Positions 11,746 to 60,105 of a stretch of 64,000 nucleotides of DNA are shown here, piece after piece (the stretch's first letter is position 1; every line of letters starts with the position of its first letter). Where the stretch lies: the NCBI GenBank assembly GCA_965207885.1, contig OZ242311.1:1824001-1888000 (forward strand), in the 5' to 3' direction. The DNA comes from Candidatus Latescibacterota bacterium. Lineage in GTDB: Bacteria; Latescibacterota; UBA2968. The translations under genes and the position numbers were made by a program. The notes under the pieces were generated by a model, which had not been told where the DNA came from, made no database searches, and worked only from the letters and a program-made list of their open reading frames with translations.

Positions 11746-12917
11746 ACCGGGAATCAGGGAAAACGACATAATGGGATTTTGACTGTACTTTTTCAAACAC
11801 AGAGGGCGCATTGATGTTCAAAAACTATCTCGTCATCACGATTCGCAATTTGCTCAAATACAAAATGTACTCAGCGATCAATGTTATCGGGCTGGGTATT
11901 GGCATTGGGTGTGTCATATTGATCGGTCTGTTTGTACAAAACGAGTTGGCTGTTAACACCCAACATCCCCATACAGATCGCTTATATCGGGTCATTGGTG
12001 AGTATCGATCAGAAAATGGTCAGAAAACATACGACTGGCGCATTTCGGGTGCTGTTGGTCCCACTCTGGCACGCGATTTCCCCGAAGTTGAAATCTCCAC
12101 ACGCACAATGCTTCGCCAGGCCTGGGTGCAGCATGAGGACAAAGTCTTGAATCGGGTATTTTGTCTCGCGGACCCGAATTGCCTGGATGTATTCAACTTT
12201 CCAATAATACAGGGTGACAAGTCTGCTCTTTTACAGCATAATTCTGTTTTTATCACCGAGTCTATGGTACGCGATTATTTTGGCGATCAAGACCCCATCG
12301 GCAAAGTGCTTACGGTCGAAGGGGCCTATATCGGGGGCGATTATACTGTCGCGGGTGTGCTTCAAGATTTGCCCAGGCGGTCTTCGATTCGTTTTGACAT
12401 GCTTTCAGCCTCTGTCAGGCCTGCTTTTCTGTCTCGATACTGGAATGCCTATTTGCCATTAGCACATTGGCGAGGCGGAATCACGGTCCACGTACGGTTA
12501 AAAGAAAACACGTCAGTTGAAAAATTGGCTTTAAAAATACCCGCGATGGTGGAACAGTATATGGGACCGGAAATGGTAGCACGCACGACGTATCACTTCC
12601 AGCCCATGGATGAAGTGCATTTGTACTCGCGACGCGATTATGGACTGCAAGACGTATTCGACCTTGAAGGGCCAGTGACGTATGGCAATATTGCACATGT
12701 TTATGCTGCATCCGCTACAGCCATTCTCATCTTTTTAATTGCAAGCATCAACTTCATCAATTTGACCACAGCCCGATCAGCTAACCGGGCACGCGAGGTG
12801 GGATTGCGAAAAGTGGTCGGCGCGCATCGAGGGCAACTCGCTTTGCAATTTTTGGCCGAGTCGGTGATTTTCTCTGTATTGAGTTTGATTGTGGGGTTAG
12901 TTTTTGTTTCTGATTTC

Positions 12918-14115
12918 CATGGTACACGACAAAACTTAAATTGTTTTAAACAGTGGCGGATTACTCAGTAAACGAATGCATATGAGGAACTGTTGGGTTT
13001 GTTGGTTTATATTGAGCAGGACATACTGCAAATAGTCCAACCCATATCGGAAGAGACTTTTCTCCATCCGCCCGTGATTTTTGATCGTCAAAGGATTTGT
13101 TTTTGCTATCCATTCGCCGATGATATGCGCCCAGATGCAGGCAATGGCCAAAAGCGCGATGAGTTTCTCAATGCGGTCTTGATGTATAAGATGGGTCTCT
13201 TCCAGATTAAATCCTCGACTTTTAAGATTGGCAAAAAGGACTTCAATGCCCCATCGTTTTTTATAGGTATCCAATGCGGCTTGACCTTTTTGGTTGCTGG
13301 CAAGAATGAGGTATTGGTCCTTCAATCTTAGTGCAGACAGATATACAGGCAGGTCATAAACGCGGTGGCGTTTGCACAAGTTGACCTGCTGATGGATATT
13401 AAGATTTTCAAACCGTTTTCTTATGGGGATCTCTCTACCGCCTGATGAGACAAGAGCGTTTTCCTTGATGCGAATAACAAAGGGTATATTTTGTGTGTCT
13501 AACCACCTAAACCATTCTCTTCCAATAAATTCTCTGTCTGCGACGACAACGCGGATATGCGATTTGCAGATGCAGTTGAGCATTTCTTGCATCAAATGGA
13601 TACGCTCATCACTATTGGAATTGCCCCGTTTTTTTAACAAGTGCCAACAGATAGGAAAGGCGACCCCTTCATAGATAATGCCTGCGGTTAGGATGTTGAT
13701 ATTGAATTTTCCCAACTTCCAATTGGTGCGATCTATTGAGACTATAAAATCCGACTTTATAGGTAATAAGTGCAAGATCAATTGTCTCACACACGCATAG
13801 GGTAAGGCAAAGTGGGCAAAGAAGCGTTGGATACGACGATAATTAGATTTCTGCTTGACGGTTCCATTGAGTGCGTTTGCCAGTTTCATAAAATTGACGC
13901 TACGCAATTTTATCAGCGACAATATGAACGCAGCGGTAAACGTTATTCGGGCTTTATGCCAGTGAAAATATCCTTGCATAATCGTTTGAAGTTCAATAGT
14001 TTCAGGAGACATAGACCTGTGCCTTGTTAAGATGAGAAAGGTTTGTCTTGGGACATTCAAACCTAACTCTTTTTAGCTTTTTTCACAGGTCTTTTATTTT
14101 TTGTCGTGTACTATG
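12918..14115 (-). mobile_element. IS4-family insertion sequence (1198 bp)
   Basis: Terminal inverted repeats catggtacacgacaaaa / ttttgtcgtgtactatg (16/17 match); 9-bp target duplication tctgatttc at 12909-12917 and 14116-14124. Confidence 0.95.
12936..14012 (-). CDS. IS4-family DDE transposase
   Basis: IDRTNW, ADREF and YKKRWGIEVLFANLK (Y-2-R-3-E-6-K signature). Confidence 0.93.
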   Translation of the reverse strand: MSPETIELQTIMQGYFHWHKARITFTAAFILSLIKLRSVNFMKLANALNGTVKQKSNYRRIQRFFAHFALPYACVRQLILHLLPIKSDFIVSIDRTNWKLGKFNINILTAGIIYEGVAFPICWHLLKKRGNSNSDERIHLMQEMLNCICKSHIRVVVADREFIGREWFRWLDTQNIPFVIRIKENALVSSGGREIPIRKRFENLNIHQQVNLCKRHRVYDLPVYLSALRLKDQYLILASNQKGQAALDTYKKRWGIEVLFANLKSRGFNLEETHLIHQDRIEKLIALLAIACIWAHIIGEWIAKTNPLTIKNHGRMEKSLFRYGLDYLQYVLLNINQQTQQFLICIRLLSNPPLFKTI

Positions 14116-15544
14116 TCTGATTTCTTACCACATTTCAACGACTATACGGGTAATTCTTTAACATTGGATATCACGGGCAATATGGCACTTGCTCTGGTTG
14201 GATTATCTCTGATAACAGGGCTTCTTACGGGGATTTATCCCGCATTTCTTTTATCGCGGTTTCGGCCTGTTGAAGTGCTCAAAGGCACACTCGCAGCAGG
14301 TGCCCGCGGTGGATTATTGCGCAAAGTGCTGGTGATTTTCCAGTTTAGCACATCTATTGCACTAATTGTAATCACATTGGTTGTGTTTAATCAAATGTCG
14401 TATATCCAAAACAAAGATCTGGGATTTGACAAAGAGTACGTCGTTGAGTCTCGTCTCTTGTGGGAATCTCGCAATTCTCGTTTGTATGAAGATCGCTTGT
14501 GGGAGCGGTACAATGTTGTCAAAGATGCGTTTTTGCAGCATCCCAATATTACGGCTGCAACAATTTCGCGTTCTTCACACGGACGCACTGCGCCGCAAGC
14601 GACTTTTAGTGCTTATGAACCGGGCAAAGAAGAATTGCGTATGGGCAGAAATGAAGTGGATGAAGATTTTCTGAGTTTCTTCAATATTGAACTTATTGCG
14701 GGTCGAGACTTTTCAGAAGACGCAGCGAAAAGGTATGATTCGGAATCATTTGTGCCCCGAGATCAGTTGGATCAATTGAAAGTTCACGGTCAGACAGAAT
14801 ACATTCTCAATGAAACCGCTGTTAAAATGCTGGGTTGGACAGACCCCATTGGCAAACCATTTGGTGTGAAAGGACGAAGACCGGGGTGTGTTGTAGGCGT
14901 GGTTAAAGATTTTCACTCGCGCACATTGCACGAGCCACTGGGCCCTATGGTTTTATATGCGAACAACGCGGTACCCAAGACACTCTACTTGAAGGTAAGC
15001 CCTCATAATTTCGATGAAACCGTTGCACACATGGAAAAAGTATGGAAACATTTTTTGCCGATTCGCCCTTTTGCTTACACGTTTATGGATGACAATCTGA
15101 ATCAGCGATATACACAGGAGCGACAGTTGAGCCAAACGATGAGCGTTTTTGCTGCTCTGGCTATTTTCGTTGCCTGTCTGGGCCTATTGGGGCTGGTCTC
15201 ATTTTTGACCGAACAGCGCAAAAAGGAAGTGGGTATTCGCAAGGTGTTGGGTGCATCTGCAGGTCTTGTTGTAGGGCTGTTCTTGAAAGAGTTTATTCGC
15301 CTGGTATTGATATCCTGTTTATTGGCATGGCCGATTGCCTATTGGGCAACCAATGAATGGTTACAGCATTTTGCCTATCGCATTGAGATTTCGGCACTGC
15401 CGTTTTTAGTAGGTGGTGTGTGTATGGTTGTCCTGACAACAATAACAGTAGCGTATAAGGTGATCAAAACAGCCCAGGCAAATCCAATAGAAGCCTTGCG
15501 GCATGAATGATTATAAAACAGTCTGGTATAACCGTGAGGGCATC

Positions 15545-48870: not shown

Positions 48871-49758
48871 ATGAAATCCGCAACTGACTTTGATCAAGAA
48901 CTTCTCGACCTCTACGATGAATATGTCCACGGACAAACAGATCGGCGGGGCTTCTTAAACCGCGCTGCAAAATTCGCAGTCGGCGGCGTAACCGCTGCCG
49001 CTCTGTTAGACAGTCTAAAGCCCAATTACGCGCTTGCGCAACAAATCGCCACAGACGACGAGCGCATCACCGCCGAATACATAGAATACCCGTCACCAGA
49101 AGGACACGAAAAAACCCGCGGATACCTCGTCGCCCCAGCACAGGCAGAAGGCAAAGTACCCGGCGTCGTTGTCATCCACGAAAATCGCGGCTTAAATCCC
49201 TACGTAGAAGACGTAGCCCGGCGCGTGGCAACGGCAGGCTTTCTGGCTCTTGCCCCCGACGCACTCGCGCCCCTCGGCGGATATCCCGGCACAGATGACG
49301 AAGGGCGACTCATGCAACGCGAGATAGATCGCAATAAAATGACAGAAGATTTTATCGCCTCTGCGCGTTATTTACACACACACGAAAAATGCACCGGAAA
49401 AGTCGGCGTCGTAGGCTTCTGCTTTGGCGGTGGCATGTCAAACACCCTTGCCGTGCGCATCCCCGACATCATCTCCGCCGCAGTTCCCTTTTACGGCCGC
49501 CAACCCGCTGTCGAAGATGTGCCAAAAATAAAAGGCGCCTTGCTCATCCACTATGCCGAACTGGACAGACGTATCAACCGGGGCTGGCCCGCTTATGAAG
49601 CCGCGCTCAAAGAAGCAGGCGTGAGTTACACGGCTCATATATACGAAAACGCCAACCACGGATTTCACAATGACACAACGCCGCGCTATGACGAAGCGGC
49701 TGCAAAGCTCGCCTGGCAACGCACAATTGACTTTTTTAATGAAACGTTGAAGGAATAG
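48871..49758 (+). CDS. Dienelactone hydrolase family (YghX-like)
   Basis: [37 protein letters not shown]. Confidence 0.92.
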
Positions 49759-49778
49759 CTTCTTAACAAGGAATCTTC

Positions 49779-51410
49779 ATGAACGGCATTGAATATATCG
49801 CTCGCATATTGAAGCAAGAAGGCGTCGAATGGATCTCCTGTTATCCCAGCAATCCCCTGATCGAGGCCGCAGCCCAAGAAAGCATTCGTCCAATCGCATT
49901 TCGGCATGAACGCGGGGCAGTCATGGCCGCAGACGGCTTTAGCCGCACCAGCAACCGACAGCGATTTGGCGTCGTAGCAATACAGGCACAAGCAGGTGCC
50001 GAAAACGCAATGGGTGGCATCGCCCAGGCTTATGCCGACAACGTCCCAATTCTGGTCCTCCCAGGCGGCGTAAGACTGAATCAAATCGCAGTCCGTCCCA
50101 ATTTTTCCGCAACCCACACCTATCGCGGATGGGTCAAACGCGTTGAAGCGATCTATCGACCAGAAGATGTCGGCACCGTAATGCGGCGCGCATTCCACGC
50201 GCTTCGCAATGGTATTTCGGGTCCAGTCGTAGTCGAAATGACCTCCGACGTCTGCGCAGAGGAAATACCCGCCGACGCGCAAAATTATCACTCGCCAAAA
50301 CGCGCACAACAGGTGCCCTCGTCCGGAGACATCAAAGATGCCGTCACAGCACTACTCGCCGCAAAAAACCCCGTAATCTGGGCGGGACACGGGGTCGTAT
50401 TTGCCGGTGCAACAGATGAAATAGAAGAACTGGCCGACCTGACCGCCACACCCGTATTCTGCACCATGCCCGGCAAATCGGCCTTTGACGAACGCCATCC
50501 ACTCGCCCTCGGCGCTGGCAGCGGCGCAACCACGGGACCTGTACACCACTGGCTCAAAAATTGCGACGTACTCCTCGCACTCGGATCCAGTTTAACCCGC
50601 ACCTCTTATGCCCAATCCGTCCCCCCCGCCAAAGTACTCATCCAAAACACCGATAACCCAGATGACATCAACAAAGACGAAGCCGTAGATATCGGATTGA
50701 TCGGCGATGTCAAACTCACCCTGCAAGCGATCATAGACGAAGTAAAAGCGCAAATCGGCGAACCCAGAAATTCTGATCAGATCGCCGCCGAAATCGCACA
50801 TGCCAAAAAGCAATGGCTCGACACCTGGACACCCTTGCTAACCTCAAATGAAGAACCCCTCAACCCCTATCGCGTCATCAACGAAATCAACAACACACTC
50901 GACCGCGAAAACAGCATTGTCACACACGACGCCGGTGCCCCCCGCGACTCAATCGTGCCATTTTACACCGCAACCACGCCCCACAGCTACATCGGCTGGG
51001 GCAAAACAACCCACCTCGGTTTCGGCATCCCACTGATGATCGGCGCCAAACTCGCCCACCCCGACAAATTCTGTCTCAACATGATGGGAGATGGCGCCTT
51101 CGGCATGTCCGGCCTGGACATCGAAACATCTGCCCGTGCAGGCATTCCCATTACAACCGTACTTTTGAACAACGGGGGCATGGCGACCTATCCCGGTGGC
51201 TTTCCCACGGCACGCGAACGCTATGGCGTCTCCAATATGCAGGGCAACTACGCCCAAATTGCCGAAGGCATGGGTGCTGTGGGCATCACCGTCAAAAAAG
51301 TGGGCGAAATGCGCCCCGCATTACAAGAAGCACAGTGCTTAAACGCCGATGGCAAAACCGTGCTTATCGATGTGCATACCAGCATGGAGAGCAAACAATC
51401 GCGGTTTTGA
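49779..51410 (+). CDS. Thiamine-diphosphate-dependent enzyme (acetolactate synthase-like fold)
   Basis: RHE..A..AADG, GPV, GDGAF...LLNNG ThDP motif. Confidence 0.92.
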   Translation: MNGIEYIARILKQEGVEWISCYPSNPLIEAAAQESIRPIAFRHERGAVMAADGFSRTSNRQRFGVVAIQAQAGAENAMGGIAQAYADNVPILVLPGGVRLNQIAVRPNFSATHTYRGWVKRVEAIYRPEDVGTVMRRAFHALRNGISGPVVVEMTSDVCAEEIPADAQNYHSPKRAQQVPSSGDIKDAVTALLAAKNPVIWAGHGVVFAGATDEIEELADLTATPVFCTMPGKSAFDERHPLALGAGSGATTGPVHHWLKNCDVLLALGSSLTRTSYAQSVPPAKVLIQNTDNPDDINKDEAVDIGLIGDVKLTLQAIIDEVKAQIGEPRNSDQIAAEIAHAKKQWLDTWTPLLTSNEEPLNPYRVINEINNTLDRENSIVTHDAGAPRDSIVPFYTATTPHSYIGWGKTTHLGFGIPLMIGAKLAHPDKFCLNMMGDGAFGMSGLDIETSARAGIPITTVLLNNGGMATYPGGFPTARERYGVSNMQGNYAQIAEGMGAVGITVKKVGEMRPALQEAQCLNADGKTVLIDVHTSMESKQSRF

Positions 51411-51486
51411 TCACTGGCGAAACATTTAGCAGTATAAACCAAAAAACCACGCCCAAAGGACGTGGTTTTTTAGTTAGTAGAAGATG
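51292..51486 (+). repeat. TPP-gene 3' end plus terminator, copy 1 (native)
   Basis: Codes KKVGEMRP...ESKQSRF* followed by hairpin aaaaaaccacg-cccaaagga-cgtggtttttt (51441-51471). Confidence 0.95.
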
Positions 51487-51640
51487 CAATTTTAGAGATG
51501 AGGAATCAAGCCCAAGCGACTGAGCTTTTAGGTATCTCAAGAATGATGCGAAATAGGTTTGCTATTCCCGCTTCGTCCTCAAGGTGCATGCGAATAAAAT
51601 TGAATCCGCTTTCCCGCTTCAGGATAGATAGGCGGTCTTC

Positions 51641-51910
51641 TCAGATATCCAATTGGTCCCAATCTGGAGGCGTTTGGCTGGGAATTTGTTTGCTCATAAC
51701 AGCGTCAAACGCCTCCAGAATTTCTCGTTTATCTTTACCGGCATATTGGTTTTGAAAAAAGGCTGTGGTTTCAAGCTCGGCAATTTCGCGCGCAAAAGCA
51801 TAAATCGCAAACTGATTCATAGACACGCCCTGTTTTTCCGCTGTCTTTTCTATTCTCTCTTTGAGGTCCTTCGGCACGCGAATGGTCAGTACGTGACTCT
51901 TTTTATGCAT
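51641..51910 (-). CDS. RHH/HicB-like antitoxin
   Basis: LTIRVPKDLK..IE..AEKQGVSMNQF ribbon-helix-helix pattern; overlaps toxin stop. Confidence 0.85.
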   Translation of the reverse strand: MHKKSHVLTIRVPKDLKERIEKTAEKQGVSMNQFAIYAFAREIAELETTAFFQNQYAGKDKREILEAFDAVMSKQIPSQTPPDWDQLDI

Positions 51911-52340
51911 AACGTTGTCTCCAATATCGAGCAAATTGAGCTGGCGTAATGATGTCGAACTGGTCAAATATCAATTCCGTTCCTTTTGTAAAATCATTGA
52001 CATTTTGAGTAATGATATATCGCGCATTGCTTGCGAAAGCCAGATCAATGAACATATTATCGTTCTCATCGCGAAGATTTGGTCGCATAAGAAAGTGGAT
52101 GGGGATAGGCTTGCCAATATACGCGATAAATCGAAGAACCGATTCTATCTCCTCGCGCGTTCGTTTGAGGTCCCGAAGTGTGTTTGGGCGCAACAGAACA
52201 TCTGAATATTCTAAAAAGACAGGGATTGATAGGGGCAAATCGAGGCGATAAGCGCGAATGAGTTGTAAAATATAATTTGATGCTCCTGCGATATTTCGCA
52301 GTGCCTGATAGAGTACATTGGTATCCATTACAATTCTCAT
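51903..52340 (-). CDS. PIN-domain toxin
   Basis: IVMDTNV, EY, LRD.ND.MF, A, IIT.N..DF, TP. Confidence 0.9.
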   Translation of the reverse strand: MRIVMDTNVLYQALRNIAGASNYILQLIRAYRLDLPLSIPVFLEYSDVLLRPNTLRDLKRTREEIESVLRFIAYIGKPIPIHFLMRPNLRDENDNMFIDLAFASNARYIITQNVNDFTKGTELIFDQFDIITPAQFARYWRQRYA

Positions 52341-52346
52341 GCTAAA

Positions 52347-52375
52347 ATGATAGTATATATGCTATCAAGTGTCAA
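52347..52375 (-). promoter_or_regulatory. Sigma70-type promoter with overlapping palindromic operator
   Basis: TTGACA-N17-TATCAT on minus strand, 6 nt before the toxin ATG; TGATAG-N8-CTATCA at 52348-52367. Confidence 0.75.
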
Positions 52376-52421
52376 GAATATATTGTGATGGACAGATATA
52401 CGCGGATGGACCTACTTTGCC

Positions 52422-52584
52422 AATGCGCCCTGCATTACAAGAAGCACAGCACTTAAATGCCGATGGCAAAACCGTGCTGATTGATGTGCATACCAGTATG
52501 GAGAGCAAACAATCGCGGTTTTGATCCCCATCGAAAACATTAGCATCATAAATAAAAAACCACGCCCAAAGGACGTGGTTTTTT
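52422..52584 (+). repeat. TPP-gene 3' end plus terminator, copy 2
   Basis: Codes MRPALQEAQHLNADGK...SRF*; about 7 mismatches in 103 coding bp vs copy 1; same hairpin. Confidence 0.95.
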
Positions 52585-52586
52585 GG

Positions 52587-55064
52587 TTAAGGAACTGATG
52601 GTGCCACTACATTGAACACAGCCCGTCGCCTCACACGTTGTCCTGAATTTAAATCATCAATGGCTACTTCCACCATCTTGAGACCAGGCTTTAGAGAACC
52701 GGTCTCCAATGCGAAGAAAACAGGTTCTTCTGTCGCATTCACATTCCGTTCATAGCTAATAGTATATTCCGGTTCTTGCGCGCCAGCAAACAACCGTCTC
52801 AATCCACCGATTACCACACTTGCTACCGTCGAGCTTCCTGCCACATTGGGGTGAATGGTATAGGTCACCCGATATTTCGCCTGACCAAACGCATCCAACT
52901 TCAGGTTGTACACTTCGTAGTACAAGTTTGCATCTTTATGTAGATTAAAACTCCTTGTAGGAGAGGGTATCACCACAAGCTCACCTTTTACAAACTTTGA
53001 GGTCTGTGAGGTCTGTGAGGTATCAGATATATTATAGGCCATTTCGATTTCACTGACGGCCAATGAATCTTCAAATGATGGGATTTCCACCTCCTGGCGA
53101 TACATACCCCACCGGCCAGATACGCGATCTGCTAACTTTACACCCAGGGTATAATGGCCAGGCGGAACATCCAGAGAGGCCAATTCTACGAATAATCCCC
53201 TGTCTTGATTCTTTGCCACCTCACCTTCAAAGACAAGCTCATCCCTTTTGCGATAGATTGAGTCTCCTTCAGCATCAGCCAGAACAAGGGTTCTTTCTAT
53301 CGTCATACGAACAACCTGATCATCTACATTTTCTAAACGAATTTGCTCTGGCGGAATACCAAAATAAACTTCCAGTAAAGATCGTTCATTTTCTCCGCGA
53401 AAGCTCACTGTATCATAATAAAATTCTAATAACTTAACACCTGGCGGAACATCAAAATACTCAGGCAACTCCGAAACAGTTTGCATGAGTTGGTATGAAG
53501 GAGAATTCAAAGAGGCATGCATTCCCAAAGACGCATGCCAAATCGTATTTGGTTGAAGCGGAAAATCCCAACTGCCACTCATATATCGATCAGTAAATAC
53601 AAACTCCAATCCATCACCGATATTCAGATAGACCCAGGATTCCCAGGGCACCATAGTTGCCCCTTCAGGAGAACGATCAATCGGAACAACAGGCTCGATA
53701 CCTCGATATAGTCCTGGAGGAATATTGAGGTGAACTGTTCCATAGACCCCTTTAACTTCCCATAACCACTCGCTCAGAGGTATTTGATCTAAGCCAACTT
53801 CAATTTCAACTCCCTTATCCTCATAAGCAATCCGTGTCCGTGCGCTTAACTTACGTGGATCTTTTACAGAAACTCCGAACATTGATGGCGTTCCAGGTGT
53901 CCACGATTGACCCGGCATCACCCGGGGCAATAAATATCGACTCTGTTCTTGTGCTTTATATTGGAAAGAGCGACCAAACAATTCATCTATCTTTCGCATC
54001 TTAAAATTCTGAACCGCCACACCTGGTATCGGATTTTCTCTCCCAGACCTGGACCTGTAATCAGGCTCTCCATACCGAATATAGACCTCACCGCGTCTAT
54101 CCCACGGCTGATCCTTGCGACCAAAGAATGTACGCGCATACCACACACGACGATAATGTTCCATCTGCCGGGCATCTCCGCCCAACATCAAAGCACCCTC
54201 CCGACTTTCCCAAAAGCGGGTTAAAAAATCTTCGCGCTCATCCTCTGATATGGATTTCAGTGCCTCCAGTTCAGCATTCGTAGCGATAAGCGATAGATCA
54301 TGGTAATAGGCACGCTCATCCTCAGAAACACCTTGCAAATATTCTTCAAATATGATCAAGCTACGCTCTGCATCACCTCGCGAAGCGTACCCCTGCGCTA
54401 TCAATGGCATCCATCTCATATCATCTGAAAAACGCGCTTTTACTTCAGCACTTATCTTCAGGACTTCATCGTAGCGATGGTTTTCAAGATGCGATAAAGT
54501 CAGGTGATAATATCCCATCGGATCGTTTGGAAAGCGGGCGATGTATTGTGTGCAGACGTCTATTAGCTCCTGTTCATAATTTAGCTGCGCTTGCTCATAC
54601 CATAAAATTAATTCGCGATACGCCGGGGCATAGTTTGGATCCATTTCGATAACTCGGCACAATGCTTTCTCTGCATCCATGTTACGGGATCTTACGTGCA
54701 ATAGTGCAATCTGCATTTGGGCTTCGAGATATGCAGGATCTACGCCTAAAGCTTGACGAAAAGCGACAAATGCCTTTTGAGCCCTTTTTTCCATAAGTGC
54801 ATAAGCTTTTCCTAAACCGGTATATGCCTCAGCGGACTTTGTATATCGCACACCTTTTTCGAAAGCGTTCTGAGCATCTGTTAATCGCTCTTCACTCAGA
54901 TATAGGTAACCGAGCTTTATCCATGCATCGCCATTTTTGGGTTCTTGTTTTACCACACGCTCCATGACATGCAAAGAATCGATTTCACTCGCATGCGTTC
55001 TTATCCCAAAAATCAATATCCAGGACAAACACAGCACACAACGAATATAGCTATGATTAGACAT
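52587..55064 (-). CDS. Secreted TPR plus GWxTD-like domain protein
   Basis: Signal-peptide-like N-terminus, TPR helices, FW...EHYRRV.YA...WDRRGEVYIRYGEPD, E.W.Y...F.F.D, C-terminal beta domains. Confidence 0.8.
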   Translation of the reverse strand: MSNHSYIRCVLCLSWILIFGIRTHASEIDSLHVMERVVKQEPKNGDAWIKLGYLYLSEERLTDAQNAFEKGVRYTKSAEAYTGLGKAYALMEKRAQKAFVAFRQALGVDPAYLEAQMQIALLHVRSRNMDAEKALCRVIEMDPNYAPAYRELILWYEQAQLNYEQELIDVCTQYIARFPNDPMGYYHLTLSHLENHRYDEVLKISAEVKARFSDDMRWMPLIAQGYASRGDAERSLIIFEEYLQGVSEDERAYYHDLSLIATNAELEALKSISEDEREDFLTRFWESREGALMLGGDARQMEHYRRVWYARTFFGRKDQPWDRRGEVYIRYGEPDYRSRSGRENPIPGVAVQNFKMRKIDELFGRSFQYKAQEQSRYLLPRVMPGQSWTPGTPSMFGVSVKDPRKLSARTRIAYEDKGVEIEVGLDQIPLSEWLWEVKGVYGTVHLNIPPGLYRGIEPVVPIDRSPEGATMVPWESWVYLNIGDGLEFVFTDRYMSGSWDFPLQPNTIWHASLGMHASLNSPSYQLMQTVSELPEYFDVPPGVKLLEFYYDTVSFRGENERSLLEVYFGIPPEQIRLENVDDQVVRMTIERTLVLADAEGDSIYRKRDELVFEGEVAKNQDRGLFVELASLDVPPGHYTLGVKLADRVSGRWGMYRQEVEIPSFEDSLAVSEIEMAYNISDTSQTSQTSKFVKGELVVIPSPTRSFNLHKDANLYYEVYNLKLDAFGQAKYRVTYTIHPNVAGSSTVASVVIGGLRRLFAGAQEPEYTISYERNVNATEEPVFFALETGSLKPGLKMVEVAIDDLNSGQRVRRRAVFNVVAPSVP

Positions 55065-55259
55065 GACATATCACCTCGGGTAGTGTCGGCACTTGATCAA
55101 GGTGGTCTTGACGTATATAAATCAAAGAGGTCCGCTTGCCAAACGTTAGAGATACATTTTAATAGAAAATAACGACCCGGATTTAGATTTAAAGGGAATG
55201 AAATCACGGATCTTCATCTTCTGAATTGAAACCAGAGTGAAAGACTCTTAAATTTCAAT

Positions 55260-56515
55260 TGGAGTTACCCCGCTTTGGTGGAGAGTTTAGGGCTTGTGTA
55301 TCAAGCCTGTGATTGATGCAGTTTTTCATAAGCTATCGGTGCATGGTAAGCAATGGAAGAGTGCCTGCGATGCGGATTATACCACCCTTCAATGTAGGAG
55401 AAGATAGCCAACCGAGCCTCTTTATGCGTACGGAAGGATCGGCGATTGATCAGTTCACACTCCAAGGTGGCGAAAAAGCTCTCGCACAGTGCGTTGTCAT
55501 AGCAGTCGCCAGCAGCTCCCATTGAGGGACGTACGCCAGCCTCCTGACAACGCTTTCCAAATGCTATGGAGGTATATTGCGCCCCCTGGTCAGAGTGATG
55601 GATCACGTCTTCGGGTCGGCGCTGGTAAAGTGCCATATTTAAAGCCGATAAGACCAACTCACTTTGCAAGTGGCTCGCCATTGCCCAGCCCACAACGCGG
55701 CGGGAGAAGGCATCTACGACAACAGAGAGATACAAAAATCCAGACCAAGTGGGTACATAGGTGATGTCGGCCACCCAGAGTTTATTGACCGTTGCCACAG
55801 TGAAGTCGCGCTTTATCAGATCGGGAGCCTTGACAGCCTGATGCGTTTTACGGGTCGTTGTGGTGCTCTTTCTGCGGCTGATGCCACAAATGGTCATCTC
55901 TCGCATGAGACGCGCCACACGCTTCTTGCCTACTCGGATACCCATATCCATCAGGTCTTTCCAGATGCGAGGGGCACCATAAGTGCTATCTGATCGGGTG
56001 TGAAAGGCTTTGATATGTTCCTTCAACTGTGTATCAACCTTTGCGCGTTTAGAGGGTGGACGTGTTCGCCAGGCATAATACCCGCTGAGGGAAACACCCA
56101 GGACTCGGCATTGCGTGGCGATTGGCCAAAGTGCCTGGTACGCTTTTACGAACGCGAAGATTTTCTGGGGTTCGCGTCGGTCTCCGCTGCGAACCAGGCC
56201 GCTGCTTTTGACAATATCTCGCGCTCGATGCGCAACTGCTTGTTCTCACGTCGAAGACGACGCAACTCTTCTCGCTCAGAACTGGTCAGACCATCTTCTC
56301 GAAGGCCCTCATCTCGATCAGCCTGACGTATCCAGTTTTGGATGGTCTGAGCGGTCGGCTCAAACTCTCTGGCCAATTCTGCAGGACTGCGACCAGCGCG
56401 CACAAGCTCGATGATTTGGCGCTTCAACTCGGCTGGATAAGGTGGACGTGTCGGTGGCATAGTGGGTCTCCTTTCTAACTACTCATAAGGTACCCACCGA
56501 AACGGGTCAAGTCCA
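55260..56515 (-). mobile_element. IS3-family element 1 (orfA 56146-56460, orfB in shifted frame to 55301)
   Basis: TG...CA ends (tggagttaccccg / cgggtcaagtcca), orfA HTH plus zipper, orfB WVADITY, HHSDQG, DNA..ESFF; no target duplication seen. Confidence 0.93.
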
Positions 56516-56667
56516 TCCTCATATATCACATTACTTTAGCAATCATTATATTATGATGAATTTAAATTTAACAATCGTTATACTTTACTATAATGCGTAC
56601 GATCCAAGATTTTTTCAACCTTTTTTTACCCGTAGCACATTCTGTTCAGTCGTATTTTTCAGACTTA

Positions 56668-56860
56668 TCAAAAAAGTGGGCGAAATGCGCCCCACACTAC
56701 AAGAAGCACAGCGACTAAACGCCGATGGCAAAACCGTGCTGATCGATGTGCATACCAGTATGGAGAGCAAACAATCTCGGTTTTAAGCCCCGTCGAAAAC
56801 ATTAGCTGTATAAACCAAAAAACCACGCCCGAAGGACGTGGTTTTTTTTGGTAGAAGATG
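56668..56860 (+). repeat. TPP-gene 3' end plus terminator, copy 3
   Basis: Codes KKVGEMRPTLQEAQRL...SRF*; about 9 mismatches in 119 coding bp vs copy 1; hairpin and downstream gtagaagatg shared. Confidence 0.95.
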
Positions 56861-56876
56861 ACCGGGAGTTGACCAA

Positions 56877-58412
56877 TCATTCAGGCTGCTTTTTTTGATA
56901 TTTATTCAATCTTGTGTTTAGAGTATCTATAGTCACCTTGTCCTTAAGTTCGGATTTCATTGCATAGTCCCTCAATCTTGTGTTTAGAGTATCTATAGTC
57001 ACCTTGTCCTTAAGTTCGGATTTCATTGCATAGTCCCTCAATCTTGTGTTTAGAGTATCTATAGTCACCTTGTCCTTAAGTTTTTCATTAACTTCATCCA
57101 TCTTTGCATAGTAATTCAATGTATCTGTAACTGCTTTAGCGATGTATTTTTTGTGCTCTTCTATTTTGCTTTTAAGAATAGAATCGATCTGAGTTGAGAA
57201 AACAGTTACTTTCTCATTAGTGAGCTTTTCTACATCTTCGTTCCAGTTCACCAGCATATTCATGGCCATTTCGTACCCACTAACAATATTCTGTGTTTTA
57301 CTATCCATTTCTTCTTTCATTTCCCTTGCTTTGATATCCACTTCTTTCTCCATTGCCCCTACTTTGCTATCCATCTCCTTTACTTTACTATCCATTTCTT
57401 TCTCCATTGCTCTTACTTTGCTATCTACCTCCTTTACTTTACCATCCATTTCTTTGTCTATTTCCTCTGCTTTAATACGCATTTGATCTACGTTATTTGC
57501 GGTGTCTTCAATATTCAATAGGGATATGTAGCCAAATAGGCCGACTAAGCCACCAAAGAGCGCAAGCGTAGTTGTGAAAACAGTTATTCGTTGTTGTATT
57601 CGATCCATCATTCTACGCTCGAGTTTCAGTTCTTTTAGAGCGTCAAGAGAAGAATTTTTTGTTGGTTGTAGCTCTTGTTCAGCACTACTTTCATCACCCT
57701 TTTTATTTACCTTTATTGATTCTTGCTCAGATCTGTTAAAAAAATTATAACGTATGATAATTATTGCCAAGAGTGCTGCAGCTCCAAGTGCTGTAACCCA
57801 GTCTTGTAGAGACCGTTTTGCTTCTACTAACCCCAAAATTCCAATTAAAATCAAAAAAACAGCGGCAAAAGCTGGAAAACCATCCTTGAGTGATGGCCAT
57901 TTTCTATTCAATAAAGATATATAAACTATCGCAATTCCCACTCCCATACATAGTATAGATATCAAGAAAGGAATCAACATAATTATTAGATCGTTGAATT
58001 TTTTTACTGCACTTGAGTCTATATGGTTCCTTAAAGAATCTTCCACAGTATCCAGTTGTTTTGAAAATCCGTCTGTTGATGTTTCAATACGAGTTGGTGT
58101 GGATGTTAATTTACCACTTTCCACTTCTTCACCATTTACGATAGTTACGCCAGAAAGCATTACCAGAGGAATCAAAAAAAGACCTATTACCATATACAAC
58201 TTCGCGGTCTTTGCTTTTTTATTAAAGATAAGATTTCTTGAGGAGTCTCGAAAATTGATGTTAGAAAATATGATAAATGCAATAAAAAGCAGACCAAATA
58301 GCACGGCTTGCATAATTCCAATATTGTTCTTGACAATACTGTAATCATAAATAAGCCATGCTATTATAAGGCATATTGTTCCAAGAATTAAAAGTGTGGA
58401 TATTTTATTCAT
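56877..58412 (-). CDS. AT-rich multi-TM protein with coiled-coil repeat C-terminus
   Basis: About 7 hydrophobic segments, then KEMDSKV-type repeats and 22-aa tandem repeats. Confidence 0.75.
   Translation of the reverse strand: MNKISTLLILGTICLIIAWLIYDYSIVKNNIGIMQAVLFGLLFIAFIIFSNINFRDSSRNLIFNKKAKTAKLYMVIGLFLIPLVMLSGVTIVNGEEVESGKLTSTPTRIETSTDGFSKQLDTVEDSLRNHIDSSAVKKFNDLIIMLIPFLISILCMGVGIAIVYISLLNRKWPSLKDGFPAFAAVFLILIGILGLVEAKRSLQDWVTALGAAALLAIIIIRYNFFNRSEQESIKVNKKGDESSAEQELQPTKNSSLDALKELKLERRMMDRIQQRITVFTTTLALFGGLVGLFGYISLLNIEDTANNVDQMRIKAEEIDKEMDGKVKEVDSKVRAMEKEMDSKVKEMDSKVGAMEKEVDIKAREMKEEMDSKTQNIVSGYEMAMNMLVNWNEDVEKLTNEKVTVFSTQIDSILKSKIEEHKKYIAKAVTDTLNYYAKMDEVNEKLKDKVTIDTLNTRLRDYAMKSELKDKVTIDTLNTRLRDYAMKSELKDKVTIDTLNTRLNKYQKKQPE
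56906..57082 (-). repeat. 66-bp perfect tandem repeat, about 2.7 copies
   Basis: Units start at 56906, 56972, 57038; encode LKDKVTIDTLNTRLRDYAMKSE. Confidence 0.95.
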
Positions 58413-58442
58413 AACATTCTACTTTCTGTAGGGCGAGATATT

Positions 58443-59695
58443 TGGACTTGACCCGTTTTAGTGGACAACTTATCTCTTTCAGAGAAAGGAGTCCGCAATG
58501 GGAAGAAAAAGATCATATCCATCAGCATTTCGCCAGCAAATGGTCGCGCTGGTCAGATCAGGCCGTAGTGCCAGCGATTTGGCCAAAGAGTTTGAGCCGA
58601 CCGCTCAGACGATCAGTGCCTGGGTGCGTCAAGCAGACCGCGATGAAGGCCGTCGGGACGATGGGTTGACCAGTCGTGAGCGAGAAGAACTTCAGCGGCT
58701 TCGCAAAGAAAATAAACGCTTGCGTCAAGAGCGTGAGATCCTTGCAAAAGCCGCGGCCTGGTTCGCAGCGGAGACCGATGCGATACCCCCAAAATCTTCA
58801 GATACATAAAGGCGCATCAGGCCATCCATCCGATCACCATGCTATGCCGCGTGCTGGGTGTCTCCACCAGTGGGTATTATGCCTGGTGTAATAGACCTTT
58901 ATCTAAACGGGCAAAGGACGATGAAAAGTTAACAGAACAAATAAGCACCTTTCATCAGCGTTCTAATGGAACCTATGGCGCACCGCGTATCTTTCAGGAT
59001 CTGCGCGAAGTAGGTGTCCACATCAGCAAGAAACGGGTCGCAAGACTGATGCGACAAGCCAATATATGTGGTGTGAGCCGAAGAAAAGGTATCCTGACTA
59101 CATACCGGTCTATCACAGACGAGAAAGCCCCTGATCTGGTTAAGCGAGACTTTAGGGTTGATAAGCCCAACAAGCTGTGGGTCGCTGATATTACCTACAT
59201 AAAAACCTGGTCTGGCTTTTTGTATCTCTCTGTTGTTCTCGACGCCTTCTCCAGACGCGTAGTTGGTTGGGCAATGGCCTCGCATCTGAAGACCCAACTG
59301 GTCTTAGATGCCTTGGATATGGCACTTTGGAACCGACGACCAGATGGGGTCATCCATCATTCAGATCAAGGCGCTCAATATACCTCTTATGCCTTTGGTC
59401 AACGCTGTGCAAGAATGGGGGTCAAACCCTCTGTCGGATCGGTTGGCGATTGCTTTGACAATGCCTTGTGTGAAAGCTTCTTTGCTACCCTTGAATGCGA
59501 GTTGATAGACCGGCATAGCTTCCCCAATCATAATCAGGCCAAACTGTCTATCTTCGAGTATATTGAAGGGTGGTATAACCCACACCGCAGACACTCTGCG
59601 ATCAGGTACCAATCGCCCATCACCTATGAAAAACTGATGGCAAAAGGTGACGGGGTTGAAAGTTCTACACTATCCACTAAAACGGGGTAACTCCA
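58443..59695 (+). mobile_element. IS3-family element 2 (orfA 58498-58809, orfB to 59690)
   Basis: Ends tggacttgacccgttttagtgga / tccactaaaacggggtaactcca, 3-bp duplication att on both sides, DDE motifs intact. Confidence 0.95.
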
Positions 59696-59698
59696 ATT

Positions 59699-59960
59699 GT
59701 CAAATGTTGTGGATGGGTAGGAGCGCATCCGTGATGATTATTATGCAGCCAACTTGAGTTCTCTGTCTTCGAATTTCATGCCTTCAATCTCTAGGGAAAT
59801 GAGCCTGTAACTACGTAACCTCAGCCAGCTTTTTTCAGCTTCAATCGCCAGTTTATACACCATCGCCACCGTATAAAATCATTACGGTGCAGGCTATCGC
59901 CGCCTCGACCGACCCTCGGCCTTTGGTCTGCCGCGTGCGATGCTGTACGGTGGCAAAGGT
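59699..59960 (-). pseudogene. IS256-family transposase 3' remnant with terminal repeat
   Basis: Minus strand reads TFATVQHRTRQTKGRGS and MVYKLAIEAEKSWLRL..IEGMKFED; followed by tccacaacatttgac, which continues as aatatctc at 58435-58442. Confidence 0.75.
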
Positions 59961-60105
59961 CTATGGACTACTATGCAGTTGTACACCTCTGCAAAATTTT
60001 GGAATACATCTCGCACAGATAAACTCGTTGTCAAAGAGATGATTAGTTCTCCTTTATCAACGAATTAGATGGGGAGACCTAAGAGAATAGAAGGTTAGTA
60101 TTTGG

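Follow-up and report, generated by a model that had tools for sequence, protein, structure and literature searches.

The stretch analysed here, a 64,000-nucleotide (nt) window on the chromosome of a Candidatus Latescibacterota bacterium (contig OZ242311.1, positions 1,824,001 to 1,888,000), carries an intact gene for a thiamine pyrophosphate (TPP)-requiring enzyme whose 3′ end and terminator hairpin occur three times in direct orientation, once as the working end of the gene and twice as displaced copies further downstream. Each of these gene ends, named here tails, is followed by different genes on the opposite strand. With a probability that we put at about 0.6, recombination, partly homology-anchored and partly illegitimate, built the array at an island hotspot flanked by convergent core genes, a process for which a dedicated recombinase is not needed. 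The genome under study (G000) is a 6.23-Mb single-contig metagenome-assembled chromosome with an estimated contamination of 5%, and the comparison set of 21 genomes of the genus consists of G000 and 20 relatives. Coordinates without prefix follow the numbering of the window, whereas the prefix C1: denotes positions on the genome contig of G000. The gene and its tails are located as follows.

49779..51410, plus strand: intact gene for the TPP-requiring enzyme, 543 amino acids (Pfam TPP_enzyme_N/M/C; NCBIfam NF004807), which forms the left conserved flank of the island
51292..51471, plus strand: tail 1, the working gene end, with 39 codons, a TGA stop, 30 nt of 3′ untranslated region (UTR) and the hairpin at 51441-51471
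52422..52585, plus strand: tail 2, a displaced end with 33 codons plus TGA, and the hairpin
56668..56847, plus strand: tail 3, a displaced end with 39 codons plus TAA, and the hairpin

The enzyme matches NF004807 with 650 bits, against a cut-off of 607. A repeat search returned a single three-copy direct family of 180 nt (51292-51471, 52406-52585 and 56668-56847), and alignment places the start of true homology at 52422 (AATGCGCC) for the second copy and at 56660/56668 for the third. In all three tails the homology extends past the stop codon, through a conserved 3′ UTR stretch of about 30 nt, to a 31-nt hairpin with A6 and T6 flanks. BLAST of the tail within the genome matches the two other copies, one along 180 nt with 90% identity (E 4e-65), the other along 168 nt with 89% (E 1e-56), far beyond chance. 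The first-pass annotation, made from the letters of the window, had noticed that the last 33-39 codons and the hairpin recur at 51292, 52422 and 56668, and repeat search, alignment and BLAST all confirm this. BLAST also locates a fourth tail outside the window, 3.4 Mb away (C1:5322961-5323095, 86%, E 6e-39). Only one full-length gene in the genome has this tail, its best paralogue showing 45% protein identity.

The three tails are 89-90% identical to each other in pairwise comparison. Between tails 1 and 3, six synonymous and two non-synonymous changes were counted over 39 codons; the corresponding values are five and one over 34 codons for tails 1 and 2, and five and one over 22 codons for tails 1 and 4. 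Over the orphan tails, 16 of the 20 changed codons are therefore synonymous, and frame and stop codon are kept in every copy (TGA, TGA and TAA in tails 1, 2 and 3, respectively), in agreement with the earlier description of mostly synonymous differences and of TGA and TAA stops.

The hairpin of tail 1 has a predicted folding energy of −19.9 kcal/mol (z −3.7) and, by this model, would serve as a terminator usable from both strands. In most copies, cargo begins a few nt past its T-run. The roughly 30 nt between stop codon and hairpin (51411-51440) are conserved across the tails of the genus to the same degree as the coding sequence, and a function such as that of a 3′-UTR-derived RNA is possible; an Rfam search of 49000-60000 at E values up to 0.1 gave zero matches. 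In public collections the hairpin pattern was found in no viral contig. Four metagenome contigs that carry the pattern were discarded, since a 621-nt TPP-tail query matched them over the hairpin only (30-42 nt) and no TPP protein match was found.

The genes that follow the tails, here called cargo, are all on the strand opposite to the tails and are mutually unrelated.

51472..51645, no strand assigned: 174-nt patchwork between hairpin 1 and the toxin–antitoxin (TA) unit, resembling pieces from relatives G007 and G020
51646..52384, minus strand: minimal TA operon, from promoter to stop, with genes for a PIN_3 protein (51903-52340) and an RHH/HicB-like protein (51641-51967) (Pfam; NCBIfam TIGR00305)
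52587..55064, minus strand: gene for a TPR/GWxTD-domain protein of 825 amino acids, convergent on hairpin 2 (Pfam TPR; TIGR04514; family F25)
56877..58412, minus strand: gene for a repeat-rich membrane protein of 511 amino acids, 35% G+C, with 66-nt tandem repeats

The G+C content of the cargo is 35-46%, compared with about 55% for the TPP gene. The GWxTD assignment is based on a TIGR04514 match of 49.6 bits (cut-off 28). The membrane protein gene contains three 66-nt tandem repeats at 56906-57103, two of them identical, and a second repeat set (33/54 nt, 57285-57479) that encodes a charged coiled-coil-like stretch; the protein matched no Pfam or NCBIfam family, and a search of 5.8 billion proteins returned four homologues only (47-64% identity). 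The first-pass annotation had named the three types of cargo correctly, but had let the TA pair end at the hairpin, from which it is separated by 170 nt.

The TA unit of about 740 bp has sharp ends, extending from about 5 nt upstream of the −35 box to the stop codon. Among the 18 loci returned by a search with the PIN protein, four related chromosomes (L056-L059) carry the unit at 88-94% nucleotide identity in at least three different contexts, with no TPP tail adjoining and with ends that lack a transposase, a hairpin or clear repeats. This distribution marks the TA pair as an apparently separately mobile minimal operon. A reading of the unit as an Xer- or integron-like cassette was rejected because it occurs at these four other sites without tail or hairpin. 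Within the patchwork ahead of it, 51479-51547 resembles the post-hairpin sequence of G007 (84%) and 51548-51641 an internal part of a cargo gene of G020 (89%), and the 174 nt may represent remnants of earlier cargo.

Arrays of this kind recur in the genus. A TPP orthologue is present in 17 of the 20 relatives (15 full-length at 93-98% amino-acid identity, one partial and one at 83%), and at least two tail matches were found in 12 of the 21 genomes, G000 included. Downstream of the intact TPP gene, G002 has three orphan tails within 6.4 kb, G010 an orphan tail of 110 codons at a distance of 2.9 kb and G019 one at 12 kb; a further orphan tail is on a 2.2-kb contig of G003. Scars at the TPP locus are seen in 5 of the 18 tail-bearing genomes, and extra tails at this locus occur in five species of the genus. 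In gene-order maps (open reading frames (ORFs) of at least 80 amino acids, chosen greedily; families defined by 50% identity and 60% cover), almost every species has a different gene directly 3′ of the TPP terminator, and both the cargo and the number of tails vary among the relatives. The cargo of the arrays in G019, G002 and G010 comprises MacB/FtsX permeases and TPR, LRR, redoxin, pentapeptide and sulfotransferase proteins; Mutator and DDE transposases are encoded close by. Two tail units of G002 are 96.5% identical over 200 nt and have the same internal deletion. A candidate recurrent joint at q345 in this genome was set aside, as it marks the place where a longer TPP fragment has lost 275 nt internally between 12-nt repeats.

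A right-hand block is common to G000, G017, G012, G004 and G006, and partly to G010 and G001; it contains F3, a GT2 glycosyltransferase gene, and F4 (E1 beta), and leads onward to a second TPP enzyme. G012 shows the minimal form of the locus (TPP → hairpin ← F3 – hairpin ← F4). In G017, the own tail of the intact gene runs unbroken into the GWxTD gene (91.7% over 2847 nt against 52422-55260). Since tail 2 and the GWxTD gene adjoin the intact gene in that relative, the 1114-bp unit that stands ahead of them in the window is an addition. The unit consists of tail 1, the 174 nt of remnants, the TA operon and 37 nt, and might be the decayed rest of a larger import from which the addictive TA pair has survived. 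A contig from a public sequencing run (X2), belonging to a relative of about 93% identity, joins 51472 to 52587.

Orphan gene ends were also surveyed genome-wide, the queries being the final 450 nt of 4380 ORFs plus 70 nt; the unfiltered version was swamped by copies of insertion sequences (ISs) and by intergenic repeat families, and these were set aside in a refiltered one. By our reading of the result, about eight other single-copy genes have one nearby orphan 3′ end (C1 2628747, 2840818, 3895981, 4778341/4783379, 5037786, 5575540 and 5797660), at 0.1-5 kb from the gene, in the same orientation and with 82-96% identity; the TPP gene alone has three. These ends may be further scars of the same process. 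Scars are therefore not peculiar to the TPP site, which points to a scar-forming process of a general kind.

The island is bounded by two convergent conserved genes, the TPP gene on the left and F3 on the right, whose intact copy occupies 70222-71253 in window numbering. Remains of both flanks meet at the start of tail 3.

56572..56667, minus strand: 3′-end stub of F3, about 28 codons plus stop (74% over 106 nt against F3, E 1e-13)
56660..56667, no strand assigned: 8-nt microhomology TCAAAAAA at the joint of F3 stub and tail 3, from comparison of the joint with both parents

The stub and the tail stand back-to-back, and TCAAAAAA occurs in both parent sequences, F3 and TPP, as expected for an illegitimate joint. 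The same joint of F3 stub and TPP tail recurs on the 2.2-kb contig of G003 (its contig C1; 90% over 360 nt), where an F18-like gene lies to the left, F15/F2-like sequence to the right and no IS at the joint, and where the stub is 84% identical to the F3 3′ end of G006. This contig was considered and discarded as a demonstration of a tandem or circular arrangement: its ends, F18-like and F2-like, fit three paralogous sites in G000 about equally (85-88%), and for this reason it is unplaceable. A stub–stub joint is expected from any of three events, namely one homologous plus one illegitimate joint, by which a piece reaching from TPP to F3 is added beside the resident island, insertion of such a piece after circularization, or tandem duplication of the island.

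The fourth tail opens an 18.8-kb segment (C1:5322961-5341769) that closes in an 88%-identical F3 stub. It holds eight other genes, followed by paralogues of F2 (85% amino-acid identity), F10 (93%) and F18 (81%), and is a dispersed duplicate of the island that retains a stub of each flank gene. This second locus is common to G006, G007, G008, G012, G014 and G017, the decay of the tail varying among them and the hairpin being retained. In G000, the genes F2, F10 (radical-SAM) and F18 (a 1600-amino-acid kinase/sigma-54 activator) form two full sets (C1:1886192-1893984 and 5333643-5341420), and further F18-/F2-like copies are found near C1 1383512 and 218457.

Tail 3 and the membrane protein gene lie between two IS elements of opposite orientation.

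55260..56515, minus strand: IS3-family element no. 1, with orfA (56146-56460) and orfB (55301-56026) (HTH_Tnp_1 and rve) and terminal repeats
58443..59695, plus strand: IS3-family element no. 2, 1253 bp (NCBIfam transpos_IS3; score 334 bits, cut-off 160)

The features of the IS3 family are present, with orfA (helix-turn-helix, HTH) and orfB (DDE rve) between TG...CA inverted ends, and the two elements are about 69-70% identical. The first lies inside the span 51292..58412 to which the first-pass annotation referred and the second begins 31 nt past its end; the statement made there that no integrase is present holds for tyrosine and serine recombinases, but overlooked these two elements with their DDE rve domains. 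The left end of IS no. 1 coincides with the limit of the homology to G017 and its right end with the start of the homology to the G003 contig. IS no. 2 is one of 10 copies in the genome, which are 100% identical, and is flanked by ATT/ATT; the outer flanks of the two elements are AAT and ATT. A direct flank repeat of 3 bp accompanies only 2 of the 10 identical copies, so target-site duplication was dropped as evidence of rearrangement at IS no. 1; either this IS family usually inserts without target duplication, or many of its copies have recombined. IS3-type terminal repeats (TGACCCGTTTTAGT...) lie a few nt from the hairpin T-run at the second locus of G006, G007, G008 and G017 (L049, L047, L052 and L053, respectively), and likewise by the T-run at the real tail of G014 (L045) and at a joint of 51476 to 58446 in run X23. 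These positions hint that IS3-type elements may prefer to insert at the TPP terminator.

The tail array is no assembly artefact. Contigs assembled independently from public runs (X1, X2, X19 and X23) were aligned onto 50800-58600. Run X19, possibly the source sample, matches with 0 differences over 51442-52512 (hairpin 1, the TA unit and 90 nt of tail 2 that carry the own variants of this tail), 52559-55306 (hairpin 2, the GWxTD gene and IS no. 1), 56454-56774 (IS no. 1, the F3 stub and tail 3) and 57053-58472, with similar depths per contig (57.8-79.7). Run X1, from a different study, yields identical pieces, including 56543-56767 over the joint of F3 stub and tail 3. Because the assemblies of the runs break off within the repeated tails, none of the listed contigs bridges tail 2 to the GWxTD gene or tail 3 to the membrane protein gene. 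Those contigs of X2 and X23 in which segments of the stretch are missing belong to relatives of 90-95% identity, which rules them out as excision products of this genome. That alternative strain versions were strung together in assembly, a chimaera that the first-pass annotation had named as fatal to its proposal, is extremely improbable: although the chromosome is metagenome-assembled with some estimated contamination and contigs break within the tails, two runs from separate studies span junctions without differences and at flat depth per contig, the divergence of 10-11% between tails far exceeds strain variation within one population, and closed chromosomes of other species show like arrays.

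From these structures, their joints and their recurrence in relatives, we infer a recombination pathway and a foreign origin of the added pieces. Homology with the 3′ part of the TPP gene would anchor the incoming DNA, whose far end would be joined illegitimately, via a short microhomology, to the recipient chromosome at a point upstream of the existing stop codon. A linear piece from a related lineage could be taken in by homology-facilitated illegitimate recombination or, equally possible, a circularized piece by Campbell-type insertion. The TPP gene would stay intact because the incoming piece brings its own gene end and terminator, while the old end, with all the sequence behind it, would be displaced downstream as an orphan; repetition of the process would build an array. 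In the window, this model requires at least two events, with the IS3 insertions probably added later on top. One would have placed the 1114-bp unit of tail 1, remnants and TA operon ahead of tail 2 and the GWxTD gene. The other, older and of island scale, would have produced the joint of F3 stub and tail 3. An order with the newest unit beside the gene would follow from the model itself.

Several observations weigh against this proposal. Microhomology is shown once, because both parents are known for one joint only. The synonymous excess comprises few codons and is marginally different from the expectation for decay along one branch. Neither the TA unit nor the membrane protein gene follows the TPP terminator in the TPP loci of 16 relatives searched for a donor (0/16), and in a breakpoint scan of the G000 TPP gene (sliding 150-nt identity, 17 orthologues) the nearest relative never switches. 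A tail tree and identity matrix, an analysis already suggested by the first-pass annotation, carry no phylogenetic signal: the tails are as close to those of other species (87-94%) as to each other (89-90%), and native and imported ends are indistinguishable because all tail identities fall within 87-94%. The hairpin, with its conserved C-A mismatch, occurs at five sites in 6.2 Mb, each at a unit boundary, as a site-specific process would predict, and the joints q409 (tail 2) and q408 (second locus of G007) coincide within 1 nt. According to Kirchberger et al. 2017 (PMC5361080), illegitimate joints are orders of magnitude rarer than plain homologous exchange, and yet scars are found in 5 of 18 genomes. 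Since donor, breakpoint within the gene and phylogenetic signal all failed to appear, import from another lineage is what we infer, given that the changes are biased to synonymous sites, that the frames are intact and that the cargo has a low G+C content.

The main rival of homology-anchored import is intragenomic duplication by replication slippage or template switching at microhomologies, affecting the entire island or just a few hundred bases at its start, in place or to the second locus, after which the copies would diverge and cargo would be exchanged by homologous recombination with other lineages, the tails themselves having been duplicated without foreign DNA. The joint of F3 stub and TPP tail is precisely the product expected from a tandem duplication reaching from TPP codon ~505 to F3 codon ~315, and the second locus is a dispersed duplicate with like ends; the near-identical G002 tail units with their common deletion, and the presence of F2-F10-F18 type genes three or more times in the genome, also fit such a process. 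However, in-place decay does not predict a tail difference of 10-11% that is mostly synonymous and leaves frame and stop intact, and the cargo after each tail is unrelated and deviates in G+C content. In addition, the F3 stub and the resident F3 share no more than 74% identity, whereas the counterpart of the stub in G003 reaches 84% with the F3 of G006. We consider duplication as the source of the tails unlikely. Site-specific accretion, by which small recombinase-less elements would accumulate at an att-like tail/hairpin site through an enzyme encoded elsewhere, would resemble cis-mobilisable elements, pseudo-SCC elements (SCC, staphylococcal cassette chromosome), Xer-dependent modules or integron cassettes. 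Each unit is flanked, as in integrative elements, by direct repeats of the target gene's 3′ end; a hairpin stands on either side of F3 as well, and the start of most cargo a few nt from the T-run, the restriction of the hairpin to unit boundaries and the coincidence of q409 and q408 point in the same direction. Yet there is no fixed crossover core. The joints of foreign and TPP sequence lie at q184 (G010), q342 (G019), q393 (tail 3 of G000, and G003), q409 and q408, so that the start points of the repeats are spread over hundreds of nt, and one joint is a microhomology with the stub of the opposite flank gene.

Nor was a recombinase found in or beside the arrays: tyrosine or serine recombinase domains (Phage_integrase, resolvase) are present in 0 of the 58 ORFs (12 + 46) scanned from the window and the 17 kb beyond it, and in 0 of the 27 ORFs of the arrays of G019, G002 and G010, and the four tyrosine recombinase genes of the genome (PF00589) are all more than 170 kb from either locus. 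The four other sites of the TA unit are without hairpin and tail, and the hairpin pattern is missing from viral contigs. As regards integrons, the window holds no integrase and the repeat is a gene end plus terminator, no dedicated search with attC models having been made. Site-specific accretion is accordingly judged improbable. Similarly improbable is an IS-driven capture, in which tail 3 and the membrane protein gene moved as a composite transposon or in which IS-mediated rearrangement gave rise to the duplications. The two inverted IS3-family elements do enclose tail 3 and the membrane protein gene, IS no. 1 sits where the homologies to two relatives stop and start, the hairpin adjoins IS3-type ends in several relatives as well as in a metagenome contig, and the family of IS no. 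2 has 10 identical copies. A composite transposon, however, has the same IS on both sides and an outer target duplication, and neither was observed: the two elements share about 69-70% identity only and IS no. 2 has its own ATT/ATT flanks. Moreover, the joint of F3 stub and tail exists in G003 without an IS, and there is none at the joints of tail 2 and of the G010 and G019 arrays.

These results bear on the interpretation given in the first-pass annotation, which had described a serial capture site growing by replacement of the gene's tail, either by a trans-acting recombinase of the integrative-element type or by homology-anchored recombination. Growth by additions that bring a new gene end and displace the old one downstream is supported, and the homology-anchored branch fits the data. 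The integrative-element branch is unsupported, in view of the variable starts of the tails, the microhomology joint and the recombinase counts (0/27 and 0/58), which include further arrays of the kind beside which a search for a recombinase had been suggested. Its division into three cargo cassettes was too simple, as tail 2 and the GWxTD gene are native-like in G017, the TA pair is separately mobile, and the IS3 elements and the F3 stub had been missed.

Integrative elements are known to accumulate in tandem at the 3′ end of protein-coding genes, as do ICESt1 and its cis-mobilisable elements (CIMEs) at fda, and SCC at rlmH. There, as at the TPP gene, direct repeats of a gene 3′ end part tandem units, and some units are without their own recombinase. 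The repeats of CIMEs and SCC, however, are short att cores at a fixed position served by a dedicated recombinase, whereas the TPP repeats measure 160-390 nt and have variable starts. Neisseria minimal mobile elements are exchanged by recombination in their flanks, without mobility genes. Their exchange is a clean replacement, whereas the TPP site keeps stubs of both flanks and grows. The two resemble each other in having cassettes that vary, among strains in the Neisseria case, between constant flank genes; work on the Neisseria elements includes PMC3787668 and PMC1797815.

The closest parallels are C-terminal displacement arrays, as presented in work on Rhs genes (Jackson et al. 2009, PMC2935791) and on type VI secretion system (T6SS) effectors, for whose displacement and orphan immunity arrays Kirchberger et al. 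2017 (PMC5361080) proposed homology-facilitated illegitimate recombination without an integrase. In both, a constant 5′ part acquires a 3′ end that displaces the old end and its companions, strings of orphaned ends result, and the mechanisms considered are homologous recombination with circular intermediates or homology-facilitated illegitimate recombination, again without an integrase. The TPP locus shares the constant body and the string of orphaned 3′ ends, but differing toxin tips, each with an immunity gene, are absent from it. The Rhs and T6SS tips are the payload, consisting of variable toxin domains with co-oriented immunity genes, whereas the TPP tails show one or two changes in 33-39 residues; and, unlike those systems, the TPP case concerns a metabolic enzyme, its cargo is unrelated and convergent, and a stub of the opposite flank is preserved. 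Homology-facilitated illegitimate recombination itself, a process of naturally transformable bacteria (de Vries & Wackernagel 2002, Prudhomme et al. 2002 and Meier & Wackernagel 2003, as cited in PMC5361080), is outlined there as having a homologous anchor on one side and a second end at a microhomology, and as trapping foreign DNA with duplication or deletion of recipient sequence, in likeness to the proposal made here. In that outline it refers to single laboratory events; the TPP case is deduced from scars, which are stacked at one site.

If homology-anchored capture is correct, an uncultured lineage associated with sponges has gained genes at an island hotspot without the help of mobile-element machinery, and the stubs of both flank genes allow single events to be counted. 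The idea of C-terminal displacement, known at toxin loci, would be extended to a metabolic gene whose end serves as an anchor only. Diverged repeated gene ends in metagenome-assembled genomes can be real, and pruning them as misassemblies is unwarranted. A full-text literature search retrieved no description of such an array at a metabolic gene, which is no proof of absence. A more speculative extension, for which the odds seem low, is that the gene end and its bidirectional terminator act as a reusable docking module, by which the convergent gene pair would become a recombinase-free, integron-like capture site that records its own acquisitions. Units of tail, terminator and cargo would then pass between lineages and between the two loci, and would be captured by general recombination via linear or circular intermediates; the same process may, in that event, shape many loci in IS-rich uncultured symbionts.

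Other parts of the window contain features of separate interest. A DDE_Tnp_1 transposase gene (12936-14060, minus strand) lies between the apparent halves of a MacB/FtsX-type permease gene (11811-12971 and 14101-15510). A plus-strand cluster at 17140-45337 encodes sulfatases, PhyH-type dioxygenases, alpha-L-fucosidases, an arylsulfotransferase and a GH32 (glycoside hydrolase family 32) enzyme and, judging from these predicted functions, looks like a locus for the use of a sulfated fucose-rich polysaccharide. Finally, several short intergenic repeat families occur right after stop codons in the genome, one of about 124-140 nt with 38 matches and another, about 75 nt long, present in over 20 identical copies; examples are found downstream of C1:245794-246642 and C1:225869-227596, and they resemble miniature inverted-repeat transposable elements (MITEs) or repetitive extragenic palindromic (REP) sequences.

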